In this document: piece by piece, positions 199-54,355 of the stretch
Position numbering within the stretch: position 1 is the first letter of the stretch
Layout: the number at the start of each line of letters is the position of its first letter
Assembly: GCA_035263845.1 (NCBI GenBank)
Contig: DATFQY010000222.1
Location: 3,304 to 67,303, forward strand
From: Thermoanaerobaculia bacterium
GTDB taxonomy: Bacteria; Acidobacteriota; Thermoanaerobaculia; UBA5066; Gp7-AA6
DNA length: 64,000 nucleotides
Direction of reading: 5' to 3'
Program-made: the position numbers and the translations under genes
Notes under the pieces: model-generated
The model's database searches: none
What the model saw: the letters and a program-made list of their open reading frames with translations, nothing else
Told to the model about the DNA's origin: nothing

Positions 199-313
199 GA
201 ACCCGCAATCCTACCGCACGGGCGCCCCCGAATCAACCCGCCCGGCCTGGAGCGTCCCCGGATGTTCTAGAATCGGCTGCTCCGTGTTTTACCTGTATGT
301 GACCGCCCCCGGG

Positions 314-1951
314 ATGCCGGCGCAGAAGTTCCTGCTCGACCGTCCCGTCACCACGATCGGCCGTTCCTCCATGAACGACCTCCCGATCTCCGACAAGATG
401 CTCTCGCGCCAGCACGCGCGGATCGTCCGGGACGGCAACGGCGGGTTGACTGTCGAGGATCTGGGTTCCCGCAACGGCACGTTCTTGAACGGCGAGCGCC
501 TCGTCACCACCCAGCCGCTCAAGTCCGGCGACCGGATCACCGTGGGAGGCGTCACGCTCAAGGTCGAGTCCGAGTCCACGACCCGCGTCCGGATCGACGA
601 GATCGCGGGCGAAGACTCCCTCGACAATACGATCCTCAAGGCCTCTGCCGAGCTGCTGCGCAAGCCCACAGAGACGGATCCAAGGCTTCCGGCCGAGCAG
701 CTCTCCAAGCTGATCGAGTCCCTCCGCGTCGTCAACGAGCTCACCATCGAGCTGCTGCGCGACGTCTCGGTGGACGAGCTGTTGAAGTTCCTCATGGACA
801 AGGTCTTCGAAACTCTGATGCCGGACCGTGCCGTCGTTCTGCTGCGCTCCAACGTTACAGGCGAGCTCGTGCCCGCGGTCGTCCGCGTGGCCGAAGGGAT
901 CTCCGCCGAGGACATCCGCCTCTCCAAGACGCTCGTCGCAGCGGTCGTCGAGAAGAAGAACGGACTGCTCCTGATGGACACGGCGACGGGTTCGGGCGTC
1001 TCCCTCTCCGAGTCCATCCGCCTCTCCGGGATCAAGTCGGTCCTCGCGGCGCCTCTGGAAAACGGCGGCGAGGTCGTCGGCCTGATCTACGTGGACTGCC
1101 GCATGGGTCACCGCTCCTTCGAGGAGGGGGACCTGCGGCTCCTGACCTCGCTCGCCAACGTCGCCGCCGCCAAGATCCAGAACGCCCGCCTGATGGCCGA
1201 GGCCGCGGAGAAGCGGCAGATGCAGAGGGAGTTCGCGCTGGCCCAGGAGATCCAGCAGCGGCTCCTGCCCGACAGCCCGCCCGCGGTCCCCGGCTACGAG
1301 TTCTACGGCTCCAACCTCCCGTCGCGGCAGGTCTCCGGCGACTACTTCGACTTCCGCGGCCGGGGCGACGGAAAGTTCTACGCGACGATCGCCGACGTCT
1401 GCGGCAAGGGGATCGGGCCGGCACTCCTCATGGCGTCGCTCCAGGCGTCGTTCCACGCCTGGGCCGACGAGCAGGTCCCGGTGGCCGAGATGACGGGCCG
1501 CCTTTCGGAGGCGATCTCGAAGCGGGCCGGGTCCGACCGGTTCATCACGTTTTTCCTTTTGATCCTGGACCCGGCCACCGGCGTCATCGAGTACACCAAC
1601 GCCGGCCATAACCAGGGGCTCGTCATCCGCAAGAACGGCACGATCGACGAGCTTCCCTCGCACGGCCTGCCGCTTGCGCTCTTCCCGGGCCGGCCTTACG
1701 GCAGCTCGAAATTCTCGCTGGAGCCCGATGAGTTCGTCTGCCTCTATACCGACGGCATCACGGAGGCCTGCAATCCCGCCGGCGAGGAGTTCGGCCTCGA
1801 GCGCCTGAAGGCGTTCCTCAAGACGCAGGTCGGCAAGGACCCCGCCGTCGTGGACACGGGCCTCGCCAGGGTCCAGGAGGAGCACTCCGCCGGCGAGCCT
1901 TACGGCGATGACCGGACCATCCTGATTCTGCGACGCCAGCCGGTGAACTGA
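314..1951 (+). CDS. FHA-domain, GAF-domain, PP2C (SpoIIE-type) serine phosphatase
   Basis: There is an N-terminal FHA signature (TIGRSSMNDLPISD..SRQHARI..GSRNGTFLNGERL), a central GAF domain, and a C-terminal SpoIIE/PP2C motif set (GDYFDF, DVCGKGIGPALLMASL, FTDGITEA). Alternative in-frame GTG starts lie at 284 and 299. Confidence 0.85.
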   Translation: MPAQKFLLDRPVTTIGRSSMNDLPISDKMLSRQHARIVRDGNGGLTVEDLGSRNGTFLNGERLVTTQPLKSGDRITVGGVTLKVESESTTRVRIDEIAGEDSLDNTILKASAELLRKPTETDPRLPAEQLSKLIESLRVVNELTIELLRDVSVDELLKFLMDKVFETLMPDRAVVLLRSNVTGELVPAVVRVAEGISAEDIRLSKTLVAAVVEKKNGLLLMDTATGSGVSLSESIRLSGIKSVLAAPLENGGEVVGLIYVDCRMGHRSFEEGDLRLLTSLANVAAAKIQNARLMAEAAEKRQMQREFALAQEIQQRLLPDSPPAVPGYEFYGSNLPSRQVSGDYFDFRGRGDGKFYATIADVCGKGIGPALLMASLQASFHAWADEQVPVAEMTGRLSEAISKRAGSDRFITFFLLILDPATGVIEYTNAGHNQGLVIRKNGTIDELPSHGLPLALFPGRPYGSSKFSLEPDEFVCLYTDGITEACNPAGEEFGLERLKAFLKTQVGKDPAVVDTGLARVQEEHSAGEPYGDDRTILILRRQPVN

Positions 1952-3327: not shown

Positions 3328-4710
3328 CTAGGTCTCGCGGCTCTGGATGTCCAGGCGCTTGATGATTTCGTGGAGGGTCGTGGGCTTCATGCGGAGCAGC
3401 TCGGCGGCCCGCTTCTGGACACCGCCGGTGCGCCGCAGCGCGGTGCGGACGAGCCGCCGCTCGTAGTCCTCGACGAGGTCCTTGTACGTCGAGCCGTTCT
3501 CCGGCAGCCGCACCGGCAGCTCCGCGCGGTCCGGCTGAAGGACGGTCTCCGGCAGCAGGTCCAGGCCGATCAGCCCGCCCGAGCACAGCACCACGGCCCG
3601 CTCGATCGCGTTCTCCAGCTCCCGCACGTTGCCCGGCCAGTTGTAGTCCAGCAGCGCGCGCAGCGCGTCGGGATGGAGCCCGCCGATCGTCTTGGAGTTC
3701 TCCGAGGCGTACAGCCGGACGAAGTGCTCGGCCAGCAGCGGAATGTCCTCCCGCCTCTCCCGAAGCGGTGGAATCGTGATCGTGATGACGCAGAGGCGGT
3801 AGTAGAGGTCGTCGCGGAACTTTCCCTCAGCGACCATCTGCTTCAAGTCCACGTTGGTCGCCGCGATGATCCGCACGTCCGCCTTCTGGGTCTCCACCGA
3901 CCCTACCCGCATGAACTCCTTCTCCTGGATGACGCGCAGCAGCTTCGCCTGCGTCTCCAGCGACACCGTCCCGATCTCGTCGAAAAAGATCGAGCCGCCC
4001 TCCGCCGCCTCGAAGAGCCCTTTCTTGTTGGCGACGGCGCCCGTGAAGGCGCCCCGCACGTGGCCGAAGAGGTTGGACTCCAGCAGGTCCGCCGGCATCG
4101 AGCCGGAGTTGACCGTGACGAAGGGGGCGCCCGACCTGGGCGAGTGCGTGTGGATCGCGCGCGCGACGAGCTCCTTGCCGGTCCCGCTCTCTCCCTCGAC
4201 GAGGATCGTGGACTTGGACGGCCCGGCCAGCCGGACGAGCTCGAAAACCCGCCGCATCCCCTCGGACTTGCCGACGATCCGGCCGAGGCCGTAGCGCTTG
4301 GAGAGCTCCTGCTTGAGCCTGCGGTTCTCCTCGGTCAGCTGGCGCTGCTCGGCGCCCTTCTCGACGGTGAGGAGGACCTCCTCGTTCTGGAACGGCTTGG
4401 GGATGTAGTGGAAGGCGCCCTCGCGCATCGCGGCGATGGCTCCCTCGATGGAGGAGTACGCCGTGACGATGACGACGACCGCGTCGGGATCGCGCCGGCG
4501 GATCTCCCGGAGCACGTCGAGGCCGGGCCGGTCGGGCAGCATCAGGTCGAGCAGCACGACGTCGAAGTTGTCCGGGTCGAAGGCGGCGAGCGCCTCCGAG
4601 GCGTCGGCGGCCGTGGTCACGTCGTAGCCCTGCCTCTCCAGAAGCGTTCCCAGGACGTCCCGGATCACCTCCTCGTCGTCCACGACGAGAAGTCGGAGCG
4701 GCCGGCTCAT
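3328..4710 (-). CDS. Sigma-54-dependent response regulator (NtrC family: REC-AAA+-HTH)
   Basis: It contains a receiver domain (LLVVDDE...DLMLPD), the GAFTGA motif in 'HVRGAFTGAVANKKGLFE', the Walker A motif GESGTGKE, and a C-terminal Fis-type HTH. The true start, MSRPL, is at 4710 and overlaps the stop of the upstream kinase as ATGA. The long N-terminal extension in the ORF track is a shadow. Confidence 0.9.
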   Translation of the reverse strand: MSRPLRLLVVDDEEVIRDVLGTLLERQGYDVTTAADASEALAAFDPDNFDVVLLDLMLPDRPGLDVLREIRRRDPDAVVVIVTAYSSIEGAIAAMREGAFHYIPKPFQNEEVLLTVEKGAEQRQLTEENRRLKQELSKRYGLGRIVGKSEGMRRVFELVRLAGPSKSTILVEGESGTGKELVARAIHTHSPRSGAPFVTVNSGSMPADLLESNLFGHVRGAFTGAVANKKGLFEAAEGGSIFFDEIGTVSLETQAKLLRVIQEKEFMRVGSVETQKADVRIIAATNVDLKQMVAEGKFRDDLYYRLCVITITIPPLRERREDIPLLAEHFVRLYASENSKTIGGLHPDALRALLDYNWPGNVRELENAIERAVVLCSGGLIGLDLLPETVLQPDRAELPVRLPENGSTYKDLVEDYERRLVRTALRRTGGVQKRAAELLRMKPTTLHEIIKRLDIQSRET

Positions 4711-7472
4711 GACGCCGCCGGAGAGGCGACCGGGAGGGTGACGATCGCTTCGACTCCGCCCTCGGGCCGCGAGGAGAGGCGAATGTCGCCCCCGTGGCGC
4801 CGGATGATGTCGCGGGAGATCGCGAGGCCGAGCCCCGTGCCTCCCGACTTCTTGGTCGAATAGAACGGTTCGAAGAGCCTCTGCGGGTCCCCGGGAGGCA
4901 GGCCCGTTCCACGGTCGGCGATCGTGACCCGCGCCGACTCCCCGTCCCGCTCGACGCGGCAGGAGACCTCCGTTCCGTCGGGGGACGCGTCGCGAGCGTT
5001 GGTCAGCAGGTTGACGAAGACCTGTTCGAGCTCCCGCGGGTCGCCGATGACCCACACGGAGGCGCCGTTGGTCTCCTGGCGGAGGCGGCGCGAGCCGAAG
5101 GTCGTCTCGACCGACTCGGCGGCGTTGCCGACGACGGCGCGCAGGTCCGTGCGGACGGAGGCGCGGGCGCGGGGGCGCGCGAACTCCAGGAGGTTGTTGA
5201 CGAGGTGCGCGGCGCGGAAGGTCTGGCGCTCCATTTTTTTCAGGATCGCGTAGCGCGGATCGTCCGGCGCCGTTTCGGCCAGCAGCATCTGCGCGTAGGA
5301 GGAGAGCCCGGCGATGGGCGTGTTGACCTCGTGGGCGACGCCCGCCGCCAGCACTCCCAGCGAGGCGAGCCGCTCGCGCTCAGCCAGCGCCTTCTCCGCG
5401 CGGACCCGGTCGGTCACGTCGTCCACGAGGACGACCCGCCTCTCCGGGTCGCCGCGGAAGGTCGAGACCGAGACGCGGAGGTTGCGCTCCTCCGCGCGAG
5501 GGTTCACGAACCGGGTCTCCACCGCGTTCTCGCCGCCGTCCGCGGGGACCGGAGGCAGCTCGACGCCCGGAAGGAGGTCCGCGAAGAGGGCGCCCGACAG
5601 CTCGCTCTCCGGCCGGCCGAGGATCGCGGCGAAGGCCGGGTTGGCCGAGTGGAGCCGCCCGTCTGCGTCGAGCACGGCGATGCCGGAGGAGGAGGAGCGG
5701 ATGACGCTCTCCTGGTACTGCTGGAGGTCGCGGATCTCTTCGAGCCTCTCGGCCAGGGCGCCGTAGAGCCGCGCGTTCTCGTACGCGAGGCCGGCCTGCG
5801 CCATGACAGCCGTGAGCAGGGCCTCGTCTTCCGAGGAGAGCGGGACGCGTCCGTCCTTGTGGCCGACGCCGAGCGCGCCGACGAGGTTGCCCGCGCAGCG
5901 CAGCGCGAAGAAGACCCGGTAGCCGCCGGCATGGAGATGGCCGGCGACCGGCTCGTCCTCCTCGCCGAACGCAGCTCCGCGGAGCCGCCAGAGGTCCGCC
6001 TGCGCCAGGCGGCGGGAGAGCAGCTCCCACTCGCCGCCAGAGAGCGCCTCGTCCTCGAAGAGGAAGAAGGAGCAGGGCACGACGTGGAGCCCCTCCTCCA
6101 CGCGCTGGACGATGGCGGCGGAGAGCTCTTCCTGGGCTCGCGGCGTCGCGAAATCCCGGGCGATGTCGAGGAGCGCGCGCCGCGCCCGGTACGTCTCGTG
6201 GTACTGGATCTTCTCGAGCACGCCGGTGATCCGCTTCTTCATCGGGACGAGCAGCGCGGCGAGGACCAGGCCCGACCCGAACGCCACGACGTTCTTCCCC
6301 GCCTCCGCCATTCCCTCGAGCGTGCGGTCGAGCAGGGCGTTCAAAAGGACGAAGGTGATGCCGGCCAGCAGGACGGCCGCGGTCGTCGCCAGCGCCTCGC
6401 GGACGAAGATCTCGACGTCCCAGAGCCGCCACTTCAGGATCGCGTAGGCGAAGGCGAGCGGGATCAGCACCAGCGGGACGACGGAGACGCTCGAGAGGAG
6501 CGGCGAGGCGAGGCCGAGGATGCGCGGGATCACCGAGAGGAGCAGGAACGGAGCGAGCCCGACGGCGACGCCGAGCCCGATCCACCGGACCTGCATGAGC
6601 GACTCGGCATCCTCGCGGCTGCGCCGCAGCAACCGCGCCAGCCGCCACATCGCGGCAATTCCGAAGACCGCGAAGTAGGCCTCCCAGAGCCGCGTCGCGA
6701 TCTCCAGCGTGGCCGCGGCGGAGGCGCTCGGGAAGAAGAGCGGCGACTCCTGGAACGCCAGCCAGGCCAGGCCCGGCAGGTAGAGGAGCGGGAGCCAGCG
6801 GCGAGGACGCACCGAGAAGGACTTCGGGAAGACGAGGAAGAAGTGCAGCAGCAGCGCCGGCAGGACCGCGCGGTACAGGTCCTCGGCGATGAGGAACGTC
6901 TTCCAGATCGTGTCGCGCGGGCCCGCGGGAGTGATGACGTAGATCGCGAAGGAGGAGAGGCACAGGGCTCCGAAGATCCGTGCCGCCCCGGCGCGGTCGC
7001 GCGACGCCGTGAAGAGGCCGATGAGCAGGTAGAGCAGCCCGACGAACGCAAGGAAGAGGTAGGTGCGGTCGAGGATCAGCCGCGGCTTCTCGAGGTGGAT
7101 CTCCCGGACTTCGCCGCCGGAGAGGACCAGCAGGCGGTGGGGAAACGGCTTGCGCGCGAGGCTCTTTTCCGGCTGCGGGAGCGAGGAGGCCGTTTGACCG
7201 TCCGCCGTGATGATTCGGTCGTCGGCCTTCAGGCCCGCGGTCGCCGCGGCACCCCCCACCTCGACCCCGGTGACGACCAGGGCGCCCTGGAGCCGCTGGT
7301 AGGTGAAGCCCGGCCGAGTGAAGCTGTCCACCTTCCGGGTGAAGGAGAGAAAACCGAGTCCCACTGTGGCGACGGTGATCACCACCGCGAGACTCGAAGC
7401 AACCCACCTGAACAGACGAGGCACGAGCGCGGATTCAGCAATCCGAATGCCACCAAACCTGTGCAACCCCAT
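4707..7472 (-). CDS. Sensor histidine kinase with an N-terminal TM-PDZ-multipass membrane module, a GAF/PAS region, HisKA and HATPase domains
   Basis: The HisKA H-box is 'LGVLAAGVAHEVNTPIAG'. The HATPase has an N-box and a G-box (DRGTGL...GGTGLGLAI). A PDZ-like segment (GLKADDRIITADG) follows the first TM, and there are at least 7 hydrophobic segments. The start was chosen as the ATG at 7472 (MGLHRFGG...), just downstream of an AT-rich intergenic region. The ORF track extends it to 7595. Confidence 0.8.
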   Translation of the reverse strand: MGLHRFGGIRIAESALVPRLFRWVASSLAVVITVATVGLGFLSFTRKVDSFTRPGFTYQRLQGALVVTGVEVGGAAATAGLKADDRIITADGQTASSLPQPEKSLARKPFPHRLLVLSGGEVREIHLEKPRLILDRTYLFLAFVGLLYLLIGLFTASRDRAGAARIFGALCLSSFAIYVITPAGPRDTIWKTFLIAEDLYRAVLPALLLHFFLVFPKSFSVRPRRWLPLLYLPGLAWLAFQESPLFFPSASAAATLEIATRLWEAYFAVFGIAAMWRLARLLRRSREDAESLMQVRWIGLGVAVGLAPFLLLSVIPRILGLASPLLSSVSVVPLVLIPLAFAYAILKWRLWDVEIFVREALATTAAVLLAGITFVLLNALLDRTLEGMAEAGKNVVAFGSGLVLAALLVPMKKRITGVLEKIQYHETYRARRALLDIARDFATPRAQEELSAAIVQRVEEGLHVVPCSFFLFEDEALSGGEWELLSRRLAQADLWRLRGAAFGEEDEPVAGHLHAGGYRVFFALRCAGNLVGALGVGHKDGRVPLSSEDEALLTAVMAQAGLAYENARLYGALAERLEEIRDLQQYQESVIRSSSSGIAVLDADGRLHSANPAFAAILGRPESELSGALFADLLPGVELPPVPADGGENAVETRFVNPRAEERNLRVSVSTFRGDPERRVVLVDDVTDRVRAEKALAERERLASLGVLAAGVAHEVNTPIAGLSSYAQMLLAETAPDDPRYAILKKMERQTFRAAHLVNNLLEFARPRARASVRTDLRAVVGNAAESVETTFGSRRLRQETNGASVWVIGDPRELEQVFVNLLTNARDASPDGTEVSCRVERDGESARVTIADRGTGLPPGDPQRLFEPFYSTKKSGGTGLGLAISRDIIRRHGGDIRLSSRPEGGVEAIVTLPVASPAAS

Positions 7473-7554
7473 CGTGTAAAGAGCTTTGTTCTCAGTCGCT
7501 TCCGTAAACGGCGCCGCGAGTCGATCCCAGAAAAATCCAATTTTCCGAATGTAG

Positions 7555-7571
7555 TCCAAAATAATTTTGGA
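7555..7571. promoter_or_regulatory. Perfect 17-bp palindrome TCCAAAAT-A-ATTTTGGA in the AT-rich intergenic region between the outer-membrane protein gene and the histidine kinase gene; candidate operator
   Basis: It was read directly from the sequence. It sits in a locally AT-rich region about 85 bp upstream of the kinase start on the minus strand. Confidence 0.3.
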
Positions 7572-7643: not shown

Positions 7644-9551
7644 CTAGAAGGAGATGGCCACGCCGCCCATGAGGCGGTTGGTCGTCGGGGCGTCGTCTCC
7701 GGACTGGGAGGCGCTGCGGGCGCGCTCCACGGCCAGGAGGAGCTTGCAGACCGAGCCGAAGGGGTTGATGCCCATCACCGAGAGGTCCTGGGCGAGCGAG
7801 ACGGCAAACTTGTGGGAATCGTTGGAGTGCGGCGTCGTCGCGGTCGCCAGCGTTTGCCTGACCTCGCGCACAAGGATCGCGATCCCCGTTCCCGTCGGGA
7901 CGACGTCCACGGCCGCGCGGGCGGACCAGTAGCGTCCGGTGTTGTCCACGATGCCGTAGCTCATGGCCGATTCCGGAGTCGGCTCCCCGGCGATCGAGCC
8001 GTACCGAAGCGAAACCGTTCCCGAAAGGGTGTCGGTGAGCCGGCGGCTGCCCGCGAGCTTGTACTGCCGGACGGTATTTCCGTCGAAGAGGTAGATGCTG
8101 TCGAAGTCGGTCAGGAAGTCGCCCTCGAAGAACGCCCGCACCGCTTCGCTGACTTTCTGGTCGGAGGCTTCCACCTTGATCGACATGTCGGGGCCGGCCT
8201 TCTTCTCGAAGCCGACCGTCACGCCGCGCGCCGACGTGGCCTCGCCGTTGTCGTCCACCGACGTGATGAGCGGGAGCACCGTGCCCGAGCCCGTCCCGGA
8301 ATCCACGACGCGATAGAGGCCTCGGACGTAAACGTAGGTCTTCGACCCCAGGTCGTAGCGCGCTCCCAGCGTCGGCGCGATTCCGTAGCCGCCCGCCAGG
8401 TAGCGCCCGACCACGCCTCCGTCGATCTCCGCGCGTTCGGAAACCTTTAGCGAGGTCCCGGCGGAGAGTTCGCCGTCGGGAGCGGACATCAGGAACGCGC
8501 CGTCGGCCCCGACCGCGGACGGTCCGACCAATCCTTCGCGATGCCGGTAGGTCATCGAGACCGAGACGCCGGGAGTGTCCGTGGCTGCCCGCGCGTAGTT
8601 CGCGCGGACCTCCAGGGTCCGCGATGCGATCGGAAAGAGATTCGAGCCGGCCGACGTCGCCCGGTAGAGGTTCGTCTCGTCGATGTAGCGGGCCGCGACG
8701 GACTCGACGTTGCCTTCCTCGGAGCCGCGCGACCAGGCGACTCCGTGCGCCTGCATGCTCGCAACCCGGTCGTCGTGGAGGTTCAGGGTGTGCTTCCTCG
8801 TCGTTAGGCTGATCTGGTCATCGTCGGACGGCGCGACCTCGAGGGCCAGGCCGGCCGCGTTGCCGGTCGTGGCCGATGTGTCGTAGATCCCGGCTGGATC
8901 CGAGACCGCCGAATAGTCGCCGTGCAGGTCGTACCGCCAGCCATTGGGCAGGCCTCCATGCACGCCGACCGCGGTCCGGGAGAGCGTCGAGTCGCCCTGC
9001 GGCATCCCCGTGACGGTGCGCACTTCGCCCGCCATGGTCTTGTCCAGCCGGACGTGGTCGAGCGCCGGAGCGGCGGCTTGATCGGCGGCGGCCTCGATCG
9101 AGAGCTCTCTCAGGACGTCGGCGGGGACCTTCTCGCGAAGCTCCCAGACGCTCGCCGTGGGGTCGTTGGAGCTGGCCTTCTCGTTTCGGGCGGCGAGTTG
9201 GATCCGTACGGCGCTGATGCCCTCGGACGGCGCCTGGTGCCAGAGCCGCACCAGCGCCGGGACGAACCCCTTCTTGTAGGCCACGAGGTCGTAAACGCCC
9301 ACGGGCGCCGACGCCAGGACGAACGTCCCGTCCGTGGCCGTCCGCGAGCGCGAGAGCGACGTATCGCCGAGGTTGTAGAGGATGACCAGCGCGCCGGAGA
9401 TGGGCTTCTCCAGGTGGCTGACGATGCCCGAGATCGGCGGGGCCACGGGGGAGGCGAGGACGGGCGACGCGGTCGGCGCGGCAAGAGCCCAGCCGCCGGA
9501 GAGAAACGCCGGCAAAAGGAAAGCCAACGCGGCAGCGGGGCGACGTCTCAT
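7644..9551 (-). CDS. Outer-membrane beta-barrel protein with an N-terminal carboxypeptidase-regulatory-like domain (TonB-dependent-receptor-like)
   Basis: The signal peptide is MRRRPAAALAFLLPAFLSGGWALA. A CarbopepD_reg-like region follows (GIVSHLEKPISGALVILYNLGDTSLSRSRTATDGTFVL). The protein is long and rich in Gly/Tyr beta-strands and ends in a C-terminal aromatic residue (...GGVAISF), as outer-membrane proteins do. The start at 9551 was chosen at the signal peptide. Confidence 0.75.
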   Translation of the reverse strand: MRRRPAAALAFLLPAFLSGGWALAAPTASPVLASPVAPPISGIVSHLEKPISGALVILYNLGDTSLSRSRTATDGTFVLASAPVGVYDLVAYKKGFVPALVRLWHQAPSEGISAVRIQLAARNEKASSNDPTASVWELREKVPADVLRELSIEAAADQAAAPALDHVRLDKTMAGEVRTVTGMPQGDSTLSRTAVGVHGGLPNGWRYDLHGDYSAVSDPAGIYDTSATTGNAAGLALEVAPSDDDQISLTTRKHTLNLHDDRVASMQAHGVAWSRGSEEGNVESVAARYIDETNLYRATSAGSNLFPIASRTLEVRANYARAATDTPGVSVSMTYRHREGLVGPSAVGADGAFLMSAPDGELSAGTSLKVSERAEIDGGVVGRYLAGGYGIAPTLGARYDLGSKTYVYVRGLYRVVDSGTGSGTVLPLITSVDDNGEATSARGVTVGFEKKAGPDMSIKVEASDQKVSEAVRAFFEGDFLTDFDSIYLFDGNTVRQYKLAGSRRLTDTLSGTVSLRYGSIAGEPTPESAMSYGIVDNTGRYWSARAAVDVVPTGTGIAILVREVRQTLATATTPHSNDSHKFAVSLAQDLSVMGINPFGSVCKLLLAVERARSASQSGDDAPTTNRLMGGVAISF

Positions 9552-12048: not shown

Positions 12049-12064
12049 TGGCACATCGATTGCA
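12049..12064 (+). promoter_or_regulatory. Exact match to the sigma-54 (RpoN) -24/-12 consensus TGGCAC-N5-TTGCA (TGGCACatcgaTTGCA)
   Basis: It was read directly from the sequence. The GG and GC spacing is canonical. The only thing downstream on the plus strand is a 31-codon ORF, MNHIWPTPAKKILFTDRASYRPVRLVFFLFS, starting at 12085. Confidence 0.5.
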
Positions 12065-12348: not shown

Positions 12349-12822
12349 CTACTTCTTTTCTTCGGGGACGGGGAGGGGAAGGAGGGTGGATTCCTTCTTC
12401 GAGGAAAGCGAAATCTGCGTTCGGATGTTCGCGACGCCCTTGATCGTCATGATGCGGTGCTGGAGAAAATCGGCAAGGGACGCGGGCGAACCCGCCTTGA
12501 CCTTCAATCGGTAAGCGAACTCGCCGGCGAGGTAATGGCACTCCTGCACGCCGAGCAGCTTCTCCAGGTCGTCCACGAACCCCCTCTCGAATCGGGGATG
12601 CTCGAGCGCAACGTCCACGTACGCGGTCAGGGGGAACCCCATCTTCTCGTGGTCGAGAAGGGCGACGAAGCCGCGGATCATCCCGTGCCGCTCCATCTTC
12701 TTGATGCGCTCGTTGACGGAGGGCGTGGTCAGGCCGACGGCCCCGGCGATTTTCGCCTGGGACAGCTTCCCGTTGCGCTGCAGCATGTCCAGGATCCGGA
12801 GATCGATGTCGTCGATGCTCAT
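12349..12822 (-). CDS. Lrp/AsnC-family transcriptional regulator
   Basis: It has an HTH_AsnC N-terminus (DDIDLRILDMLQRNGKLSQAKIAGAVGLTTPSVNERIKKME) and a RAM/AsnC_trans C-terminal domain. The start at 12822 (MSIDD...) was chosen over the longer track ORF. Confidence 0.85.
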   Translation of the reverse strand: MSIDDIDLRILDMLQRNGKLSQAKIAGAVGLTTPSVNERIKKMERHGMIRGFVALLDHEKMGFPLTAYVDVALEHPRFERGFVDDLEKLLGVQECHYLAGEFAYRLKVKAGSPASLADFLQHRIMTIKGVANIRTQISLSSKKESTLLPLPVPEEKK

Positions 12823-12931
12823 CTCCGCGGCCCTTAAAAGATTAGAAGCTGGTTGCTTTGCGACTAATAATATTAGACCGCCCGCCGCTGTCAATAGCGT
12901 ATTTTCGGCACCGCTATAATCCCGGAAACTG

Positions 12932-38733: not shown

Positions 38734-38749
38734 TGGTCCTGGTCTTGCT
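38734..38749 (+). promoter_or_regulatory. Possible sigma-54 promoter TGGTCC-N5-TTGCT (GG/GC spacing correct, 2 mismatches in the -24 box) 27 nt upstream of the PEGA-protein ATG
   Basis: It was read from the sequence. It is weaker than the exact match at 12049. Confidence 0.25.
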
Positions 38750-38775: not shown

Positions 38776-39804
38776 ATGAAACGACAGGGACTGATTTATC
38801 CGCTGGCGTTCGCCCTGACGCTGCTGCTTGCTGCGGCCGCGCAGGCTGCTCCGCGCGGTGGAGGCGGTGGCGGGCACGGCGGCGGAGGCCACGGCGGCGG
38901 GGGCGGCCATGGAGGTCATGGCGGTCACGGCGGCCATGGCCACGGTGTCGTGGTCGTCGGCGGCGGATGGGGTTGGGGGTGGGGCTGGGGCTGGGGTTAT
39001 CCCGGCTACTACGGCGGCTACTACGGCGACGGGTACGGTTACGGCCCGGGCGCCGGCTACGGATGGGCCGCGATCGATACCGACGTTGCTCCCGAGGAGG
39101 CCGTGGTCTACCTCGATGGCAGACCGATCGGCACCGCCGATGATTTCGACGGCTATCCCGACTACCTCTTCCTGGGGCCGGGCCACTACAAGATCGAGTT
39201 CCGGCTCGACGGTTACCAGCCCCTGGTGAAGGAAGTGGACGCGCAACCCGGGATGTACATCGACTTCACGGATAAGATGGCGCACATCCCGGGCGTGAAG
39301 CCCAATCCCGCCAACGACGCCAAGATCGAGGGCCCGGTACAGCGCTACTTCATGAAGAGGCAGCGCGGCGGGAATCGCGGCACCATGCCGGCTCCCAACG
39401 GCCCGGACGGATACGGCCACGGGGATGTCGAGGTCGGGCCGCCAGGACAGCCTCCCGCCGACGGAGGTGACGACGGTTACGATCAGCCTCCGCCGCCTCC
39501 GGCGCGCGCGCCCTCGGCTCAGCCCCGGAACGGCAACGGCGATTCGTGGCGCGGCAATCAGTACCAGCGGGTCCAGGCCCGGACCCGGCTCTACCTGACG
39601 GTCGAGCCTCCGGACTCCGCCGTTTACATCGATAACCGGTTCGTGGGAACGGGCGAGGAGGTCAACTCCATCGACCGCGGCCTCACGGTGACGCCGGGCC
39701 ACCACGTGGTGACGGTGTCGAGGCCGGGCTTCCGCGAGAAATCGCTGGAGGTGACGGTCGAGGAAGGCAAGGCCGGCAACCTGGAGATCTCGCTCACGAA
39801 GTAG
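38776..39804 (+). CDS. Secreted protein with a His/Gly-rich low-complexity region, GW repeats and two PEGA domains
   Basis: The signal peptide is MKRQGLIYPLAFALTLLLAAAAQAAP. The low-complexity stretch is GGGGGGHGGGGHGGGGGHGGHGGHGGHGHG, followed by GWGWGWGWGWGYPGYYGGYYGDGYGYG. Two PEGA-like beta-sandwich domains are present (AVVYLDGRPIGTAD...GHYKIEFRLDGYQPLVKEV and AVYIDNRFVGTGE...GHHVVTVSRPGFREKSLEV). A strong terminator follows. Confidence 0.85.
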   Translation: MKRQGLIYPLAFALTLLLAAAAQAAPRGGGGGGHGGGGHGGGGGHGGHGGHGGHGHGVVVVGGGWGWGWGWGWGYPGYYGGYYGDGYGYGPGAGYGWAAIDTDVAPEEAVVYLDGRPIGTADDFDGYPDYLFLGPGHYKIEFRLDGYQPLVKEVDAQPGMYIDFTDKMAHIPGVKPNPANDAKIEGPVQRYFMKRQRGGNRGTMPAPNGPDGYGHGDVEVGPPGQPPADGGDDGYDQPPPPPARAPSAQPRNGNGDSWRGNQYQRVQARTRLYLTVEPPDSAVYIDNRFVGTGEEVNSIDRGLTVTPGHHVVTVSRPGFREKSLEVTVEEGKAGNLEISLTK

Positions 39805-41841: not shown

Positions 41842-44430
41842 ATGACGGGCGTCGGAGCGGAGGAGCGCGCCAGGCGCGCGGGGTCGCTGCGGGGCTGGTT
41901 CTACGCCGTCGGGCTGATCGGCCTGGCCATCGCCGTTGCGTCCATCGCGGACATGTTCTCGGCGCGGCCCAACGACGGCATCGTCCCGGTCCCGTACCGC
42001 AGCGGCGGCATCGAGGTCCGCATGGTCGCTCCGGGCGGCGCCGCGGAGAAGGCCGGGATCACCGCGGGCGACTGCATCCTGGGCCTCGCCAACCACCTGG
42101 TCAACTCGATCTCCGACGCCTCGCGCGAGCTGCGCCGCCACCAGATCGGGGAGACCGTCCCGTACCTCGTCCGCCGGGGGCCCTGTGCCTCCCCGGGAAT
42201 GACGGCGGGCGCCGGAGGCGGAGAGCTCCGGACCGTTCCGGTCAAGCTCTCGTCGATCCGGCTCGGGGGGACGACCTACCTCTATGCCGCCGTGCTCGGC
42301 TTCCTCTTCTTCTTCATCGGGTTCTTCGTGTTCGCGCGGCGGCCCGACGACCGCTCCGCCCAGGTCTTCTTCCTGCTGTGCGTCCTCTTCCTGCTCTTCT
42401 TCGTCTGCCGGCTGCGCCCCGCCTCCTACTGGTGGATCGACGTTTTCGTGCAGAACACGGGGACGGTCAGCCTCTTCCTCCTGCCCGCCGTCTTCCTCCA
42501 CTTCTTCCTGATCTTTCCCAGGCCCAAGGTGTTCACCTTCGCCGACCGCGACGAGTGGAGCGACGAGGCGCCGGGCTGGAAGAAGAAGCTCGAGGAGTTC
42601 CTCTCGGCGAGCCCCGCGCTCTTCTACCTGATCTACTCGATTCCGCCGGTCGTCTTCCTCTACGACGTCTTCCGGCAGCTCCAGGGCCGGCGCGTCTCGA
42701 TCCTCTCGGGAGCACCGCTGTCCTCCTGGGTCCTGCTCGGCGACTACCTGATCCTGGGGCTCGCGGCCCTGGCCCACTCGGCGTTCACCCTGCGCGAGCC
42801 CTCCGAGAGGCGGCAGGCCTTCCACGTCCTCGTCGGAACGATCCTCGGCACGACGCCCTTCGTGCTGCTGGGCATCGTCCTGCCGTCGCTCTTCAACAAC
42901 GACGACTACGTCTTCTACGGCATCGTCCCGATGATCCTGATCCCGCTGACGTTCGCCTACGCGATCGTCCGCTTCCAGATGCTCAACATCCGGCTGGTCG
43001 TGCGCCGGACGTTCCTCTACGCCGGGACGACGGCGATCCTCTTCGGCTTCTACATCGCGGCGATCGCAACTGCCAACGCGCTCTTCGCCGAGCGGCTCTC
43101 GGCCTCCCCGATCTTCAATTTCGGCTTTTTCCTCGTGGTCGTGCCGCTCTTCGAACTGCTGCGCCGGCGGCTCCAGACGCCGCTGGACAAGCTCTTCTTC
43201 CGGGAGAAGTTCGACTACCAGGCGGCGCTGCTCGAGATGAGCGAGGCCATCACGGGAGAGCTGGACCTCGGGAAGATCACCGACTACCTGACCGCGAGCG
43301 TGACCGCGACGATGCGACTGGAGCGCGCCTCCGTCTGGCTGCGGGACCGGGACGGGTTCCTCGAGCGGCGGGGAAGGCGAGAGGACCGCCTCTCGCCCGA
43401 CGCCGATCTGCGGCGGGTCCTGCGCCGCGAGGGCAAGCCCGTCGGGCTGGAGGAGCTGTCGCTCTCCTTCGCCGACGAGGAGAGCCAGGCCTTCCGCGAG
43501 CGGCTCTCCGAGGAGGGGTTCAAGCTGGTCGTTCCGCTCGTCTACCGGGAGCGGCTGATGGGGCTCCTGGCGCTGAAAGAAAAGCTCTCGGGCGAGCGGT
43601 TCGACCGCGAGGACCGCTCGCTCCTCTCCACCCTCGCCAACCAGGCCGCCCTCGCCATCGAGACCGCGCTGCTCCACGACGAGATGACCCGGCAGGCGGA
43701 GTTCCGACGCGACCTCGAGATCGCCCGCGACATCCAGTCGAGCCTTCTGCCGCGGTCGGTCCCGATCCTGCCGGGGTTCGAGCTGCTCGGAGGGAGCCTC
43801 CCCGCGCGCATCGTCGGCGGCGACTTCTACGACTTCATCCCGTTCGAGGACCGCTCGCTGGGCGTCGTCATCGGCGACGTCTCGGGCAAGTCGGTCCCCG
43901 CGTCGCTCCTGATGGTCGCCTCCAAGGAGATCGTCTACTCCCGCGCCTTGACGACCCGCGACCCGGGCGTCCTTTTCCAGGAGTCCAACCGGCGCATCTA
44001 CTCGATCAAGAGGCGGATGTTCGTCTCGCTCGGCTACTTCGTCCTGGATCCCGACGCGATGAGCCTGCGGTACGCGATCGGGGGGCAGCCGCTGCCGATC
44101 CTGCTGCGCTCGGGCGACGGGGGGCCCCGGCCGCTCGACCCGCCCGAGCACCGGCTGCCGCTCGGGGCCTTCCGGGAGGTCCCCTACGACACCCGCGAGA
44201 TCTACTTGAAGCGCGGGGACCTGATCTTCTTCTACACGGACGGGTTCTCCGAAGCCATGGACGAATCCATGAATCCGTACGGGGAGGAGCGCCTGATGAA
44301 GTCACTGGCCGCCCGGCAGGGGGAGAGCCTGGAGGACCTGGCCAACGGAATCCTGGCGGACATCCGCAAGCACGTGGGCGGTGCCGAACAGTACGACGAC
44401 ATGACGTTCCTGCTCCTGAAAGTGCAATGA
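41842..44430 (+). CDS. Membrane sensor PP2C (SpoIIE-type) phosphatase: TM-PDZ-multipass membrane module-GAF-PP2C
   Basis: It has an ATG after CCAGGAG. A PDZ-like segment (AEKAGITAGDCILGLANHLV) follows the first TM, and there are at least 8 hydrophobic segments. The membrane module is clearly homologous to that of the histidine kinase at 4707-7472: LHFFLIFPRPK versus LHFFLVFPKS, and IPLTFAYAIVRFQMLNIRLVV versus IPLAFAYAILKWRLWDVEIFV. A GAF domain and PP2C motifs follow (GGDFYDF, GDVSGKSVPASLLM, FYTDGFSEA). The 845 aa ORF on the opposite strand is a shadow. Confidence 0.85.
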   Translation: MTGVGAEERARRAGSLRGWFYAVGLIGLAIAVASIADMFSARPNDGIVPVPYRSGGIEVRMVAPGGAAEKAGITAGDCILGLANHLVNSISDASRELRRHQIGETVPYLVRRGPCASPGMTAGAGGGELRTVPVKLSSIRLGGTTYLYAAVLGFLFFFIGFFVFARRPDDRSAQVFFLLCVLFLLFFVCRLRPASYWWIDVFVQNTGTVSLFLLPAVFLHFFLIFPRPKVFTFADRDEWSDEAPGWKKKLEEFLSASPALFYLIYSIPPVVFLYDVFRQLQGRRVSILSGAPLSSWVLLGDYLILGLAALAHSAFTLREPSERRQAFHVLVGTILGTTPFVLLGIVLPSLFNNDDYVFYGIVPMILIPLTFAYAIVRFQMLNIRLVVRRTFLYAGTTAILFGFYIAAIATANALFAERLSASPIFNFGFFLVVVPLFELLRRRLQTPLDKLFFREKFDYQAALLEMSEAITGELDLGKITDYLTASVTATMRLERASVWLRDRDGFLERRGRREDRLSPDADLRRVLRREGKPVGLEELSLSFADEESQAFRERLSEEGFKLVVPLVYRERLMGLLALKEKLSGERFDREDRSLLSTLANQAALAIETALLHDEMTRQAEFRRDLEIARDIQSSLLPRSVPILPGFELLGGSLPARIVGGDFYDFIPFEDRSLGVVIGDVSGKSVPASLLMVASKEIVYSRALTTRDPGVLFQESNRRIYSIKRRMFVSLGYFVLDPDAMSLRYAIGGQPLPILLRSGDGGPRPLDPPEHRLPLGAFREVPYDTREIYLKRGDLIFFYTDGFSEAMDESMNPYGEERLMKSLAARQGESLEDLANGILADIRKHVGGAEQYDDMTFLLLKVQ

Positions 44431-44514: not shown

Positions 44515-45954
44515 ATGAGCAGGATGGGTATCAAGTCCCGCCGGGCCGTAGCCCTGGTCACGGTCCTTTTCCTGCTCGTGGCGGGCGGGGTGCTGGCCCT
44601 CTACCTGACGTCCACCAGCCGGCGGGAGGTCACGACCTCCTCATCGGCCGCGTACGACGCCTACCGGTCGGGGGTGGATAACTTGCGTCGCTTCTATACG
44701 AAGGAAGCGAGGGTCGACTTCGCGCGAGCCCTCTCGCTGGATCCCAATTTCGCCATGGCGATGCTGCGCCTGGCGGGCCTCTCCAACCAGGACCAGTACA
44801 AGTCCCTGGTTGAGCGCGCTTCGAAGCTCCGCGGCCGCTTGAACGAGAGGGAGCGCCTGTGGGTGGACCTCTACATGACGGGCGAAAAAGGGAGCCGGGA
44901 GGAGAGACTCAAGATCGCCAAGGAGCTTCACGAGAAGTATCCCGACGACATCGACGCGGCGCACTGGCTCGCTGGGGACGAGATGGCCCAGGGCCGGACG
45001 GACGAAGCGATCCGGATCATGATGGGCCTTCTCGCCCAGGACCCCAACATCGCGGACGTCTACAACCAATGCGGCTACTACTACGCCTTCCGCGGGGAAT
45101 ACGAGAAGGCCGTCGAGAACGTCAAGAAGTACCAGTTCATGGCCCCCGACCAGGCCAATCCCTGGGACAGCCTCGGCGAAATCCAGGCCTACATGGGTCA
45201 TTACGACGAGGCGATCGCCAACCTCAACAAGGCTCTCTCGCTGAAGCCCGATTTCTTCGAGTCGCATTACCACCTTGGCGTCGCCTATGAAGGAAAGGGC
45301 CTGCCCGACAAGGCGATCGAGCAATACCTGGCTGCGGCGCAGGAAGCCCTGACCGACGGCAAGAGGATGGACCTTTACGCGTCGGTGATGCGGACCGGGA
45401 TCGTCTCCGAAAATGCGGCCGCCGTCCGCGACGCCGCACGGCGTGTCGCGCAGCTTCCGAAGAACAAGGACTCGGAAGTCTGGAACGCGTTCACGGAATC
45501 CGCCCTGGACCTGGCCGAGGGCCGTCCGGCAGGCGCCGAGAAGCGCCTCGCCGAGCTCCGTCCGCGGCTGCTCGAGCAATTCACGAAAGACAACCGCGAT
45601 CCGGAAAGGAAGCCCTTCTTCCCGGTCTGGAACGGGCTGATGGCGCTGGCGAAGGCCCGTCAGGGCAAGATCGACGAAGCGATCGCGCTCTACGAGCAAA
45701 ACGTCAATCCGCCCAATCGTGCCGACGCCTTCGAGGGCCGGCGCTCCATCTTCGAAGCCAGGGCGCGGCTCGCGGCCCTGCTCGCCAAGAAAGGCGACCT
45801 GGACCGCGCCGAGAAGCTCCTCGCGGAGAACAAGGCGTGGAACCCCAGCTGGGCCCCGACGCGCCCCGCCGAGCTCGTCGTGGAGCAGGCCCGGCGCGAC
45901 AAGGTCCTGGCCGCCGCCGCTGCAGACAACGGAGACCGCAAGGGCGCCCGCTGA
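44515..45954 (+). CDS. Membrane-anchored TPR-repeat protein
   Basis: It has an ATG after GGAGG and an N-terminal TM (AVALVTVLFLLVAGGVLALYL), followed by multiple TPR motifs. Confidence 0.8.
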   Translation: MSRMGIKSRRAVALVTVLFLLVAGGVLALYLTSTSRREVTTSSSAAYDAYRSGVDNLRRFYTKEARVDFARALSLDPNFAMAMLRLAGLSNQDQYKSLVERASKLRGRLNERERLWVDLYMTGEKGSREERLKIAKELHEKYPDDIDAAHWLAGDEMAQGRTDEAIRIMMGLLAQDPNIADVYNQCGYYYAFRGEYEKAVENVKKYQFMAPDQANPWDSLGEIQAYMGHYDEAIANLNKALSLKPDFFESHYHLGVAYEGKGLPDKAIEQYLAAAQEALTDGKRMDLYASVMRTGIVSENAAAVRDAARRVAQLPKNKDSEVWNAFTESALDLAEGRPAGAEKRLAELRPRLLEQFTKDNRDPERKPFFPVWNGLMALAKARQGKIDEAIALYEQNVNPPNRADAFEGRRSIFEARARLAALLAKKGDLDRAEKLLAENKAWNPSWAPTRPAELVVEQARRDKVLAAAAADNGDRKGAR

Positions 45955-45957
45955 CCC

Positions 45958-47457
45958 GTGCCGGATTTCCAGACCCAGCACAAGCTCCTTCTTCTCGAGA
46001 CCCTCTACGACGCCGGCCGCTCGCTCGGCTCGCTTCCCGATGAGGAGGCCCTGGTCGAGGACGTCCTCGGCCGCGCCGTCGGAGTCCTCGACGCCTCGCG
46101 CGGGTACCTCGCCACCTTCAACGAAGGCGGAGCGAGGCTGGCCGAGGCCCGCGTCGGATTTCCGAAGCGGCTCTCGGAGTCCACGGTCGCCGAGGACGAG
46201 TTCTTGGCCGACGTCCTCCGGGCCGACACGGCCCTCCAGAGGGAGAACTTCAAGCTGCTGCGGGTGGCGATCACGACGGCCGTGGGCGTGCCGATCCGGG
46301 CGGGCGCGCGGACCGTCGGGGTGCTGGTCCTCGCGGACAAGGAGCTGCGGCAGGGCGGGCGCATCGCGTTCGACGAGGACGACTCCCGGTTCCTGACCTC
46401 GCTTGCGGGACTGTGCGGAATGGCCATCGAGAACCGCCGGCACCTTGAGAAGCTGACGCGGGAGAGAGAGAGGCTCGAGGAAGAGAACCGGCGCCTGCTC
46501 GACGAGACCGGACGGGCCGCCGCGGGGCGTCTCTTCGTCGGAGATTCTCCCGCGGCCCGGCGGGTCCTCGACCTGATCGGCCGGGTCGCGCCGTCGCGGA
46601 CCTCGGTCCTCATCACGGGTGAGAGCGGCACGGGCAAAGAGCTCGTCGCTCGGATGATCCACGCGAGGAGCGATCGCGCCGAGAGGCCGTTCGTCGCGAT
46701 CAACTGCGCGGCCCTGCCAGAGTCGCTCCTGGAGTCCGAGCTCTTCGGCATCGAGCGCGGAGTGGCCACGGGTGTCGAGGCGCGGGCCGGGCGCTTCGAG
46801 GCGGCCAACGGCGGAACGCTCTTCCTCGACGAGGTCGGGGACATGCCGCTCTCGCTCCAGGCCAAGCTCCTGCGGGTCCTGCAGGAACGGGAGATCGAGC
46901 GCGTCGGCGGCAGAAGGCGGATGCCCATCGACGTTCGCGTTCTCGCCGCAACCAACGCGAGGCTTCCGGAGAAGATCGCCGCGGGAGAGTTCCGCGAGGA
47001 CCTCTACTACCGTCTCCGGGTCATCGAGATCGCGCTGCCGCCGCTGCGAGAGCGGCGCGAGGACATCCCGAGGCTCGCCCGGCATTTCCTTGAGCGCTTC
47101 GCCGCGCGGGAGGGGCGCGAGACGCCGACGATCGACCGCGAGGCCTTCGCCGCTCTCCTGTCTCATGACTACGCGGGCAACATCCGGGAGCTCGAGAACC
47201 TGCTCGAAGGCGCCGCCTCGCTCTGCCGCGGAGGCGTCATCCAGCTCGAGGATCTCCAGTGGCTGCCGGCCCGGGCGCCCGGACGGCCGGACGCGCTGCC
47301 GGAAGGCGAGTCCAGCGAGGTTCCGAACCTGGCCGCCCTCGAGGAGAGGCATATCCGCAGGGTGCTGAAGATGGCCGGTGGCAACAAGAGCCGCGCGGCC
47401 CGACTCCTGGGAATCAGCCGGAGAACGCTCTACCGAAAGAAGGTATTGAGCCGATAA
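45958..47457 (+). CDS. Sigma-54-dependent transcriptional activator with an N-terminal GAF sensor (GAF-AAA+-HTH, no receiver domain)
   Basis: The GAF region spans about residues 1-150. It has the Walker A motif GESGTGKE, the GAFTGA-equivalent motif ERGVATG, and ESELFG. The C-terminal Fis-type HTH is GGNKSRAARLLGISRRTLYRK. Its GTG start lies 4 nt after the upstream stop. Confidence 0.9.
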   Translation: MPDFQTQHKLLLLETLYDAGRSLGSLPDEEALVEDVLGRAVGVLDASRGYLATFNEGGARLAEARVGFPKRLSESTVAEDEFLADVLRADTALQRENFKLLRVAITTAVGVPIRAGARTVGVLVLADKELRQGGRIAFDEDDSRFLTSLAGLCGMAIENRRHLEKLTRERERLEEENRRLLDETGRAAAGRLFVGDSPAARRVLDLIGRVAPSRTSVLITGESGTGKELVARMIHARSDRAERPFVAINCAALPESLLESELFGIERGVATGVEARAGRFEAANGGTLFLDEVGDMPLSLQAKLLRVLQEREIERVGGRRRMPIDVRVLAATNARLPEKIAAGEFREDLYYRLRVIEIALPPLRERREDIPRLARHFLERFAAREGRETPTIDREAFAALLSHDYAGNIRELENLLEGAASLCRGGVIQLEDLQWLPARAPGRPDALPEGESSEVPNLAALEERHIRRVLKMAGGNKSRAARLLGISRRTLYRKKVLSR

Positions 47458-54277: not shown

Positions 54278-54355
54278 TGGTGGAGCTGACCGGGATCGAA
54301 CCGGCGACCTCCTGAGTGCGATTCAGGCGCTCTCCCAAAACTGAGCTACAGCCCC
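54278..54355 (-). tRNA. tRNA-Ala (anticodon CGC)
   Basis: The reverse complement folds as a cloverleaf: GGGGCUG-UA-GCUC-AGUUUUGGGA-GAGC-G-CCUGA-AUCGCAC-UCAGG-AGGUC-GCCGG-UUCGAUC-CCGGU-CAGCUCC-A-CCA. It has the G3:U70 identity pair of tRNA-Ala and an encoded CCA. It is very similar to E. coli tRNA-Ala. Confidence 0.9.

Follow-up and report, generated by a model that had tools for sequence, protein, structure and literature searches.

The 64,000-nucleotide stretch analyzed here (the window; positions 3,304 to 67,303 of the forward strand of contig DATFQY010000222.1, assembly GCA_035263845.1, from a Thermoanaerobaculia bacterium of the Acidobacteriota) encodes a sensor histidine kinase (HK) and, 34 kb away, a PP2C/SpoIIE phosphatase (hereafter PP2C). 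Each protein begins with a transmembrane (TM) helix, TM1, which is followed by a PDZ domain, a further block of TM helices and a GAF domain. The two genes and the parts of their products are as follows.

4707-7424, minus strand: HK, with TM1, PDZ, nine TM helices, GAF, PAS, HisKA and HATPase_c (open reading frame (ORF); Pfam; conserved start codon)
7347-7403, minus strand: hydrophobic core of HK TM1, residues 24-42 as numbered from position 7472 (hydropathy; AlphaFold2 (AF2) helix 16-49)
7092-7310, minus strand: predicted periplasmic PDZ of HK, residues 55-127 (Pfam PDZ, E=1.6e-5; AF2 beta-rich domain 56-127; Foldseek matches to the PDZ domains of DegS, AlgW and CtpA)
6204-7067, minus strand: nine-helix membrane block of HK, residues 136-423 (AF2; block profile; bridging family member P0326; PrsK model)
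5736-6134, minus strand: predicted cytoplasmic GAF of HK, residues 447-579
4725-5711, minus strand: output region of HK (PAS, HisKA, HATPase_c), residues 588-916 (Pfam)
41842-44430, plus strand: PP2C, with a paralogous module of TM1, PDZ, nine TM helices and GAF (ORF; Pfam; block profile)
41998-42177, plus strand: PDZ of PP2C, residues 53-112 (Pfam PDZ_6, E=2.6e-7)
42253-43251, plus strand: nine-helix membrane block of PP2C, residues 138-470 (alignment; hmmsearch, 416 bits; PrsK model match to residues 351-618)
43264-43662, plus strand: GAF of PP2C, residues 475-607 (Pfam GAF, E=7.3e-13)
43849-44424, plus strand: SpoIIE/PP2C catalytic domain, residues 670-861 (Pfam SpoIIE, E=2.4e-42, profile positions 2-191 of 192)

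Both ORFs are present as first described, at 4707-7472 on the minus strand and at 41842-44430 on the plus strand; the longest version of the HK frame reaches TTG 7595, and PP2C has an alternative start at TTG 41824. Pfam identifies PDZ (55-109), GAF (449-563), PAS, HisKA and HATPase_c domains in HK, where the GAF match is weak (E=1.3e-3, under the gathering score), and PDZ (53-112), GAF (475-607) and SpoIIE (670-861) domains in PP2C. BLASTP joins the two proteins in one co-linear alignment (HK 62-635 with PP2C 54-667, E=4e-21, 24% identity), which contains the motif pairs LHFFLVFPKS / LHFFLIFPRPK and IPLAFAYAILKWRLWDVEIFV / IPLTFAYAIVRFQMLNIRLVV reported in the initial annotation. The common N-terminal architecture claimed there is thus borne out, and the similarity lies well above compositional background. 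Smith-Waterman comparison of the membrane blocks scores 233 against 42.6+-7.1 for shuffled sequences (z=27), and z is 29 when shuffling is confined to 20-residue windows that preserve the pattern of TM helices and loops. The same shuffle test yields z=5.8 for the PDZ pair and z=8.2 for the GAF pair. A search of the window with the block profile (hmmsearch) returns these two copies only, one joined to a HisKA/HATPase kinase with an adjacent REC-sigma54-HTH regulator and the other to a SpoIIE/PP2C phosphatase, so that the pairing of one module with two outputs also stands.

The anatomy of the module was modeled with AF2 for HK residues 1-580, using a 56-sequence alignment (mean pLDDT (predicted local distance difference test) 84.9; predicted template modeling score (pTM) 0.68). 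Inspection of the model reveals a TM1 helix at 16-49, a PDZ domain at 56-127, nine helices at 136-423, a juxtamembrane helix at 425-440 and a GAF domain at 447-579. The block therefore exists as proposed, but with nine predicted helices rather than the at least seven given previously, for a total of ten TM helices. Lysine and arginine number 13 in the short cytoplasmic loops of HK and 5 in the periplasmic ones. Ten TM helices combined with a cytoplasmic N-terminus put the PDZ domain outside and the GAF domain inside, and the periplasmic location first predicted for the PDZ domain is thus supported by both the model and the positive-inside count. Taken together, HK and PP2C carry one modular input unit, which is predicted to run from a cytoplasmic N-terminus through TM1, an HtrA-type periplasmic PDZ domain, a nine-helix bundle and a juxtamembrane helix to a cytoplasmic GAF domain. 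The best solved structures matched by the HK PDZ domain in Foldseek are DegS (4rqy, E=1.8e-3) and peptide-bound AlgW (7co7), with CtpA also matched, and the NCBIfam degP/degS PDZ models give weak matches to the PDZ of the module; the HK GAF region matches GAF domains. Conservation is strongest in the bundle, which carries the motifs LP-A-x-x-LHFFLxFP, G-x-x-PF-x-LL and PL-x-FAYAI-x-x-x-x-L-x-DV as well as near-invariant His, Pro and Arg residues. Several of its helices are only weakly hydrophobic by hydropathy, which suggests a polar core. Two PP2C orthologues (P0106 and P0133) were called without TM1; a different topology was rejected for them, since TM1 is encoded in frame upstream with usable start codons, as expected of truncation during gene calling.

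To place the membrane block among known families, a profile restricted to the block, with PDZ and GAF excluded, was run against 1.84 billion cluster representatives. It matches 27,264 of them at E<=1e-3, 13,758 at E<=1e-10 and 601 at E<=1e-30. The block starts at residue 110-140 in most of the best 150 matches, leaving room ahead of it for TM1 and PDZ. Among 55 full-length representatives scanned with Pfam, for which the 25 commonest of 26 families were listed, GAF_3 occurs in 41, PDZ_6 in 34, HATPase_c in 28, SpoIIE in 10, HisKA_7TM (PF16927) in 7, and HD_5 and HisKA_3 in 3 each. Direct assignment of the window blocks to PF16927 was rejected, as neither the HK nor the PP2C block matches it even at E<=10 (gathering score 28.6 bits), and the link was made through relatives. 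One of these, P0326 from Bryobacterales, scores 36.9 bits over residues 131-349, above the cutoff of 28.6, and aligns to HK 25-392 at E=4e-22. A second, P0324, scores 33.2 bits, also above the cutoff, and the block profile detects both at E values near 1e-50. Because P0326 both passes PF16927 and aligns to HK, HK residues ~141-353, comprising the first seven block helices, can be read as a diverged HisKA_7TM domain, and homology places the first seven bundle helices in the HisKA_7TM (PF16927) superfamily. The last two helices and the GAF domain are co-linear with PrsK: PP2C 351-618 aligns to positions 189-469 of the PrsK profile at E=4e-19, and family member P0187 aligns over 227-818 to positions 103-679 in a single stretch. 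The block, which the initial annotation could not assign to a named family, can consequently be connected to two. Its suggested relation to 7TMR-DISM modules was discarded, as no 7TMR-DISM_7TM or 7TMR-DISMED2 match occurs in HK or PP2C, nor does one appear among the 25 commonest families of the 55 representatives. Divergent members of the family carry generic names only, as judged by cluster look-up.

The family pairs its input unit with more outputs than the two in the window. Proteins with a complete block in our collected set include 61 with PDZ, block, GAF and histidine kinase, 37 with PDZ, block, GAF and PP2C, and 5 with PDZ, block, GAF and HD-GYP; most of the complete-block proteins have a PDZ. 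Domain content thus points to reuse of the module with at least four outputs, namely HisKA kinase, HisKA_3 kinase, PP2C and HD-GYP. A search for further fusions was suggested at the outset; HD-GYP and HisKA_3 were found, and GGDEF, which had been named as a candidate, is absent from the 25 commonest Pfam families listed for the 55 representatives. The block is matched twice in each of three members (P0275, P0296, of about 1430 aa, and P0291). For P0275 and P0296 Pfam supports an apparently duplicated PDZ-7TM-GAF unit ahead of a HisKA_3 kinase, which may be real or an assembly artefact. An apparent PP2C-TPR fusion (P0210) was rejected as evidence of a functional link, as it contains Arg/Pro-rich, out-of-frame-looking stretches typical of a frameshifted assembly.

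Each of the two window proteins lies in a cassette of its own. For HK, the remaining elements are the following.

3328-4710, minus strand: sigma-54-dependent response regulator (REC, AAA+, HTH_8), the cognate partner of HK (Pfam; downstream of HK in 69/69 loci; under the PrsR cutoff)
7438-7452, minus strand: sigma-54-type promoter TGGCATTCGGATTGC, 13 nt before the HK start codon (pattern match; same position in 49 orthologous loci)
7535-7571, minus strand: tandem inverted repeats TCCAAAAT-T-ATTTTGGA, then ATTCGG-AAAA-TTGGAT, ~100 bp upstream of the promoter (conserved where the upstream sequences of 49 loci are aligned)
7644-9551, minus strand: conserved partner protein of HK, secreted, with CarboxypepD_reg, ~520 aa without a family assignment, and ...RLMGGVAISF at its C-terminus (Pfam; alignment; synteny)

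The gene order CarboxypepD_reg protein, HK and sigma-54 regulator is retained in relatives at 49-63% identity. We surveyed the best 80 loci in species-representative genomes, with block identity down to 35%; all are from Acidobacteriota, so the survey says little about wider taxonomy. A homologue of the partner lies directly upstream of HK in 70 of the 73 loci with room for one, and a sigma-54 regulator lies downstream in 69 of 69. The partner ends in R-phi-phi-G-G-phi-A-phi-x-F (phi, hydrophobic) in 65 of 70 loci. The reverse test, which started from the partner in metagenome contigs and included homologues of only 29-33% identity, places a block downstream on the same strand in 50 of 54 loci with enough sequence (median distance 538 nt), and the sigma-54 element in 55 of 58 partner loci. 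Beyond its N-terminal CarboxypepD_reg domain, the partner returned no match in profile searches of PDB sequences and Pfam. It has a signal peptide and 18 amphipathic dyad segments, compared with 7.6+-2.1 in shuffled sequences, and is probably an outer-membrane beta-barrel.

The promoter region bears directly on where HK begins. The TGGCATTCGGATTGC element falls inside the ORF taken from ATG 7472, and an equivalent element occupies the same place in L001, L002 and L006-L053, with an invariant -24/-12 and a variable spacer. The spacer varies also at the non-wobble positions of the putative longer reading frame; an invariant -24/-12 combined with a varying spacer indicates constraint at the level of DNA and not of protein. 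The distance from element to start codon is 13 nt in 36 of the 49 loci, and the start is GTG in 40 and ATG in 9. With an element and a start codon that are both conserved and lie 13 nt apart, GTG 7424 is the most likely start of HK, which shortens the ATG-7472 ORF by 16 codons; the earlier choice of ATG 7472, which encloses the promoter, is to be revised. Given canonical spacing, the transcript leader would be about 2 nt. Across loci, the upstream repeats have the consensus CCAAAA-N3-TTTTGG and TYCAA-N4-TTGGA (window 7571-7535), making them a candidate enhancer, or upstream activating sequence (UAS), for the adjacent sigma-54 regulator. Repeats and promoter together form the classic arrangement for an enhancer-binding protein, from which the adjacent regulator probably activates its own HK-response regulator operon.

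The elements that surround PP2C in the second cassette are distinct from these.

44515-45954, plus strand: membrane-anchored TPR protein, directly downstream of PP2C (Pfam; synteny in L003-L005; under the PrsT cutoff)
45958-47457, plus strand: GAF-sigma-54 enhancer-binding protein (Pfam; synteny)
48043-50491, plus strand: partner-switching set, with an RsbW-like kinase (48043-48504), a STAS protein (48501-48854) and a GAF-SpoIIE phosphatase (48851-50491) (Pfam; ORFs; order conserved in L003-L005)

The full order, PDZ-PP2C, TPR protein, GAF-sigma-54 activator, ~65-aa ORF, RsbW-like kinase, STAS protein and GAF-SpoIIE, is kept in the three orthologous loci L003-L005, down to 44% identity in Thermoanaerobaculum, and all parts are found in the window. 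The RsbW-like kinase matches HATPase_c_2 at E=1.7e-23, and the STAS protein is recognized at E=3.2e-13. The STAS protein in its phosphorylated form suggests itself as the putative substrate of the membrane phosphatase. The operon of this cassette appears to be sigma-54-dependent.

Several further features lie in and around the two cassettes. A sigma-54-like site, TGGCAGAGGGCTTGC (47652-47666, plus strand), follows the GAF-sigma-54 activator gene and precedes the ~65-aa ORF (47688-47885, plus strand); L003 and L004 have a similar site at the aligned position, which is weak in L005. The short ORF is conserved, encodes a product with a hydrophobic C-terminal half and is followed by the RsbW-like kinase, STAS and GAF-SpoIIE genes. 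On the other side of PP2C, a PEGA/CarboxypepD_reg protein (38776-39804, plus strand) has a Gly/His-rich, low-complexity N-terminal region with GW repeats (GGGGGGHGGGGH...GWGWGWGWGWGY). A possible sigma-54 site, TGGTCCTGGTCTTGC (38734-38748, plus strand), lies 28 nt before its ATG, and the homologous gene in L005 has TGGCATATGGGTTGC at equal distance. Near the HK cassette is an FHA-GAF-SpoIIE phosphatase gene (284-1951, plus strand). It is found there in relatives too, as a full gene in L002 and as a 290-aa gene with a SpoIIE match only in L001. The window thus holds three SpoIIE-type phosphatases: FHA-GAF-SpoIIE, the membrane PP2C and GAF-SpoIIE.

Comparison of the two modules with each other and with their orthologues reveals how old the pair is. 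Their blocks share 23% identity, in contrast to the 68-84% that each shares with its own orthologues, and block sequences across the family cluster largely by output type. The ectodomains of the HK group carry the motifs F-x-SF-x-RKVDSF, GDRI and PFPH-x-L, and those of the PP2C group DMF-x-x-RPYDG, AGI-x-x-GD and V-YLV. The HK and PP2C modules are accordingly read from these comparisons as paralogues of ancient origin that belong to separate conserved cassettes, and they have diverged exactly at the place expected to bind ligand.

The layout of the module is not new in itself. In a survey from 2012, a kinase of Streptococcus mutans (NCTC11060) with a PDZ domain between one TM helix and nine was called ComP-like (PMC3353171), Bacillus ComP was modeled with the same TM-PDZ-9TM layout in 2022 (PMC9620489), and a census reported ten TM helices in 48 ComP proteins (PMC4008528). 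The module was therefore uncharacterised, as first stated, in a restricted sense only: its layout has been published, but our literature search found no experiment on the acidobacterial version. Compared by description, the module shares with ComP a cytoplasmic N-terminus, ten TM helices and a PDZ domain in the first extracellular loop. ComP differs in having a HisKA_3 kinase, a NarL-type regulator (ComA) and comQ/comX as neighbors, in contrast to HisKA with a sigma-54 regulator, or PP2C, here; the module is accompanied here by an outer-membrane protein (OMP)-like protein in one cassette, and by a TPR protein plus a partner-switching set in the other. Among the scanned neighbors of HK and PP2C, no gene for a polyprenyl synthetase and none resembling comX was found. 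A search of NCBIfam returned no ComP model, and tblastn of the module and the family consensus against plasmids gave no match. PF16927 is presumably the family that InterPro assigns to ComP, which we treat as a lead and not as a result.

HisKA_7TM was listed as a sensor domain without a ligand by Galperin et al. 2018 (PMC5847659). The likeness to it consists of the 7 of 55 representatives, with P0324 and P0326, that pass its model over the stretch aligned to HK 141-353; the model spans seven of the nine block helices, without TM1-PDZ and without GAF. The sensor of PrsK was described as 'entirely novel', with an obscure stimulus (PMC1569441). PrsK (TIGR02916) belongs to the XrtA/PEP-CTERM system. 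In addition to the co-linearity of its last TM helices and GAF domain with the module, the theme of a sigma-54 regulator and a TPR protein recurs, and in these matches nothing in the PrsK model corresponds to the PDZ region. Membership in PrsK, PrsR or PrsT was rejected because every score falls well under the equivalog cutoff: HK at 103.9 and PP2C at 68.7 against 300 for TIGR02916, the regulator at 389.3 against 502.6 for TIGR02915, and the TPR protein at 58.3 against 312.2 for TIGR02917. No exosortase (EpsH/XrtA) or PEP-CTERM gene was found among the scanned neighbors, the window and genome not having been searched with those models.

Two further systems resemble one half of the picture each. 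Like DegS and AlgW of the sigma-E and AlgU envelope stress responses, the module presents an HtrA-type periplasmic PDZ domain on a membrane anchor, and a candidate ligand ending in hydrophobic-x-Phe is encoded adjacent to HK. DegS and AlgW act through a trypsin-like protease domain and cleavage of RseA or MucA, in contrast to HK and PP2C, which have no protease domain by Pfam and whose output is phosphotransfer or dephosphorylation. PP2C resembles RsbU and RsbP of Bacillus subtilis, which converge on RsbV, in that a SpoIIE/PP2C domain lies near an RsbW-like kinase, a STAS protein and a second GAF-PP2C. The input of RsbU and RsbP is an RsbT-binding or PAS domain, whereas here it is a ten-TM PDZ sensor.

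These observations can be combined into one mechanism. The PDZ domain would capture a peptide or protein C-terminus in the periplasm, capture would shift TM1 relative to the polar 7TM bundle, and this shift would be relayed through the juxtamembrane helix and GAF domain to the output. For HK, the OMP-like protein encoded just upstream offers the best candidate ligand in its exposed C-terminus (...GGVAISF-COOH), such that the kinase may perform a DegS-like check on outer-membrane protein assembly that is wired to a two-component system rather than to a protease. Once phosphorylated, the sigma-54 regulator would occupy the upstream repeats and turn on the HK-response regulator promoter, in positive feedback, along with further targets. 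PP2C would respond to a different periplasmic cue, perhaps with the neighboring membrane-anchored TPR protein, and would then dephosphorylate the STAS protein that the adjacent RsbW/STAS set holds in phosphorylated form. It may do so beside the second, cytoplasmic GAF-SpoIIE phosphatase, in the manner of RsbU and RsbP acting on RsbV. We regard this account as a whole, a ComP-like PDZ-7TM unit present as two paralogues in separate cassettes and working as proposed, as the probable explanation, though with appreciable doubt.

Several points weigh against it. The ligands of the HK and PP2C PDZ domains are themselves inferred. The family assignment is transitive, the window proteins having no PF16927 match of their own. 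An outer-membrane location for the partner relies on a signal peptide, amphipathic periodicity and a C-terminal motif, and its single-sequence structure model is useless (pLDDT 31). A C-terminal Phe with alternating hydrophobic residues is moreover a general feature of outer-membrane proteins, such that conservation of the motif is no proof of PDZ binding. It is also uncommon for a GTG start to follow a leader as short as the predicted 2 nt or so. Finally, the window contains three sigma-54 elements where 1.67 are expected by chance, which is not above chance, and the case for the element upstream of HK is therefore made by its conservation across loci.

Three other explanations deserve consideration. 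The initial annotation proposed that one periplasmic cue controls two regulatory layers, with the same peptide or C-terminus bound by both proteins and signaled in parallel through His-Asp phosphotransfer and Ser/Thr dephosphorylation. The common architecture and clear homology of the two proteins, the HtrA-type PDZ domain of each, and the presence in both cassettes of sigma-54 activators and a nearby secreted protein of CarboxypepD_reg/PEGA type speak in its favor. The paralogues are old, however, with each block far closer to its own orthologues than to the other copy, their PDZ domains resemble each other weakly (z=5.8) and carry different group-specific motifs, and they reside in separate cassettes, which together leave a shared cue unsupported. 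The OMP-like partner accompanies only the HK type, and the TPR protein and RsbW/STAS set only the PP2C type. We therefore consider a single cue improbable.

The main rival to a PDZ-borne signal holds that the 7TM bundle is the primary sensor, of a membrane-embedded or lipidated ligand or of a membrane property, with the PDZ domain as an accessory that tethers a partner protein or the peptide moiety of a lipopeptide, a scheme put forward for ComP with its isoprenylated ligand ComX. In ComP, the N-terminal membrane domain is what detects the lipidated peptide (PMC4008528; PMC9620489). Conservation here is likewise strongest in the bundle (LHFFLxFP, G-x-x-PF-x-LL, PL-x-FAYAI and the near-invariant His, Pro and Arg), whose weakly hydrophobic helices suggest a polar core, and the block family is very large, with PrsK-type members that match from the later helices and have no counterpart to the PDZ. 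Set against this are the occurrence of PDZ in 34 of 55 representatives and in most complete-block proteins, its tight linkage to a partner with an invariant C-terminus, and the lack of ComQ- or ComX-like genes near HK or PP2C, and we judge sensing by the bundle to be possible but doubtful. Alternatively, the PDZ domain may bind no signal at all and serve as a handle for regulated proteolysis or as a docking site for a periplasmic protease that trims the sensor. A precedent is cited in PMC9620489 (its reference 59), according to which the Prc protease of Xanthomonas trims the kinase VgrS. The closest relatives of the PDZ by both sequence and fold do all come from proteases (HtrA, DegS, AlgW, CtpA), but no protease gene is conserved in either cassette and the PDZ is located in the sensor itself rather than in a protease; we hold this explanation to be very unlikely. 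Capture of a C-terminus by the PDZ domain, with separate cues for HK and PP2C, thus remains our preferred reading.

With respect to novelty, the module is of a known kind, a ComP-like sensor of the HisKA_7TM superfamily, and what appears to be new are the two acidobacterial cassettes, which appear undescribed. A sensor module common to a kinase and a phosphatase is ordinary among bacterial signaling domains. Of greater interest is that three poorly understood sensors, the ComP layout, HisKA_7TM and PrsK, are tied into one very large family, such that knowledge of one should carry over to the others. For the acidobacterial HK there is a concrete candidate ligand, the partner C-terminus, and a concrete readout, a conserved sigma-54 promoter that would be self-activated. 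The mechanism is therefore testable with peptides and a reporter, though the organisms are mostly uncultured. A bolder interpretation takes the HK cassette, with its OMP-like barrel partner, PDZ-7TM-GAF kinase, sigma-54 regulator and self-activated, near-leaderless promoter, to be an undescribed envelope-surveillance system of Acidobacteriota, in which a DegS-like PDZ reads the ...G-G-phi-A-phi-x-F end of a dedicated OMP into two-component signaling; PDZ plus HisKA_7TM, ComP included, would then be a general class of peptide C-terminus receptor for kinases, PP2C phosphatases and HD-GYP proteins. We offer this speculatively and think it rather unlikely to hold in full. Public annotation of these genes is poor, with kinase genes split (as in the L001 and L002 calls), PP2C starts truncated such that TM1 is lost, and names as generic as 'PDZ domain-containing protein', and the architecture is consequently hidden from automated surveys.

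Two observations concern the remainder of the window. A perfect sigma-54 consensus, TGGCACATCGATTGC (12049-12063, plus strand), lies upstream of the region of an AsnC-type regulator gene on the opposite strand (12349-12894), and no obvious plus-strand gene was identified downstream of it. A tRNA gene at 54281-54355 on the minus strand is the sole Rfam match at the gathering threshold in the whole window.

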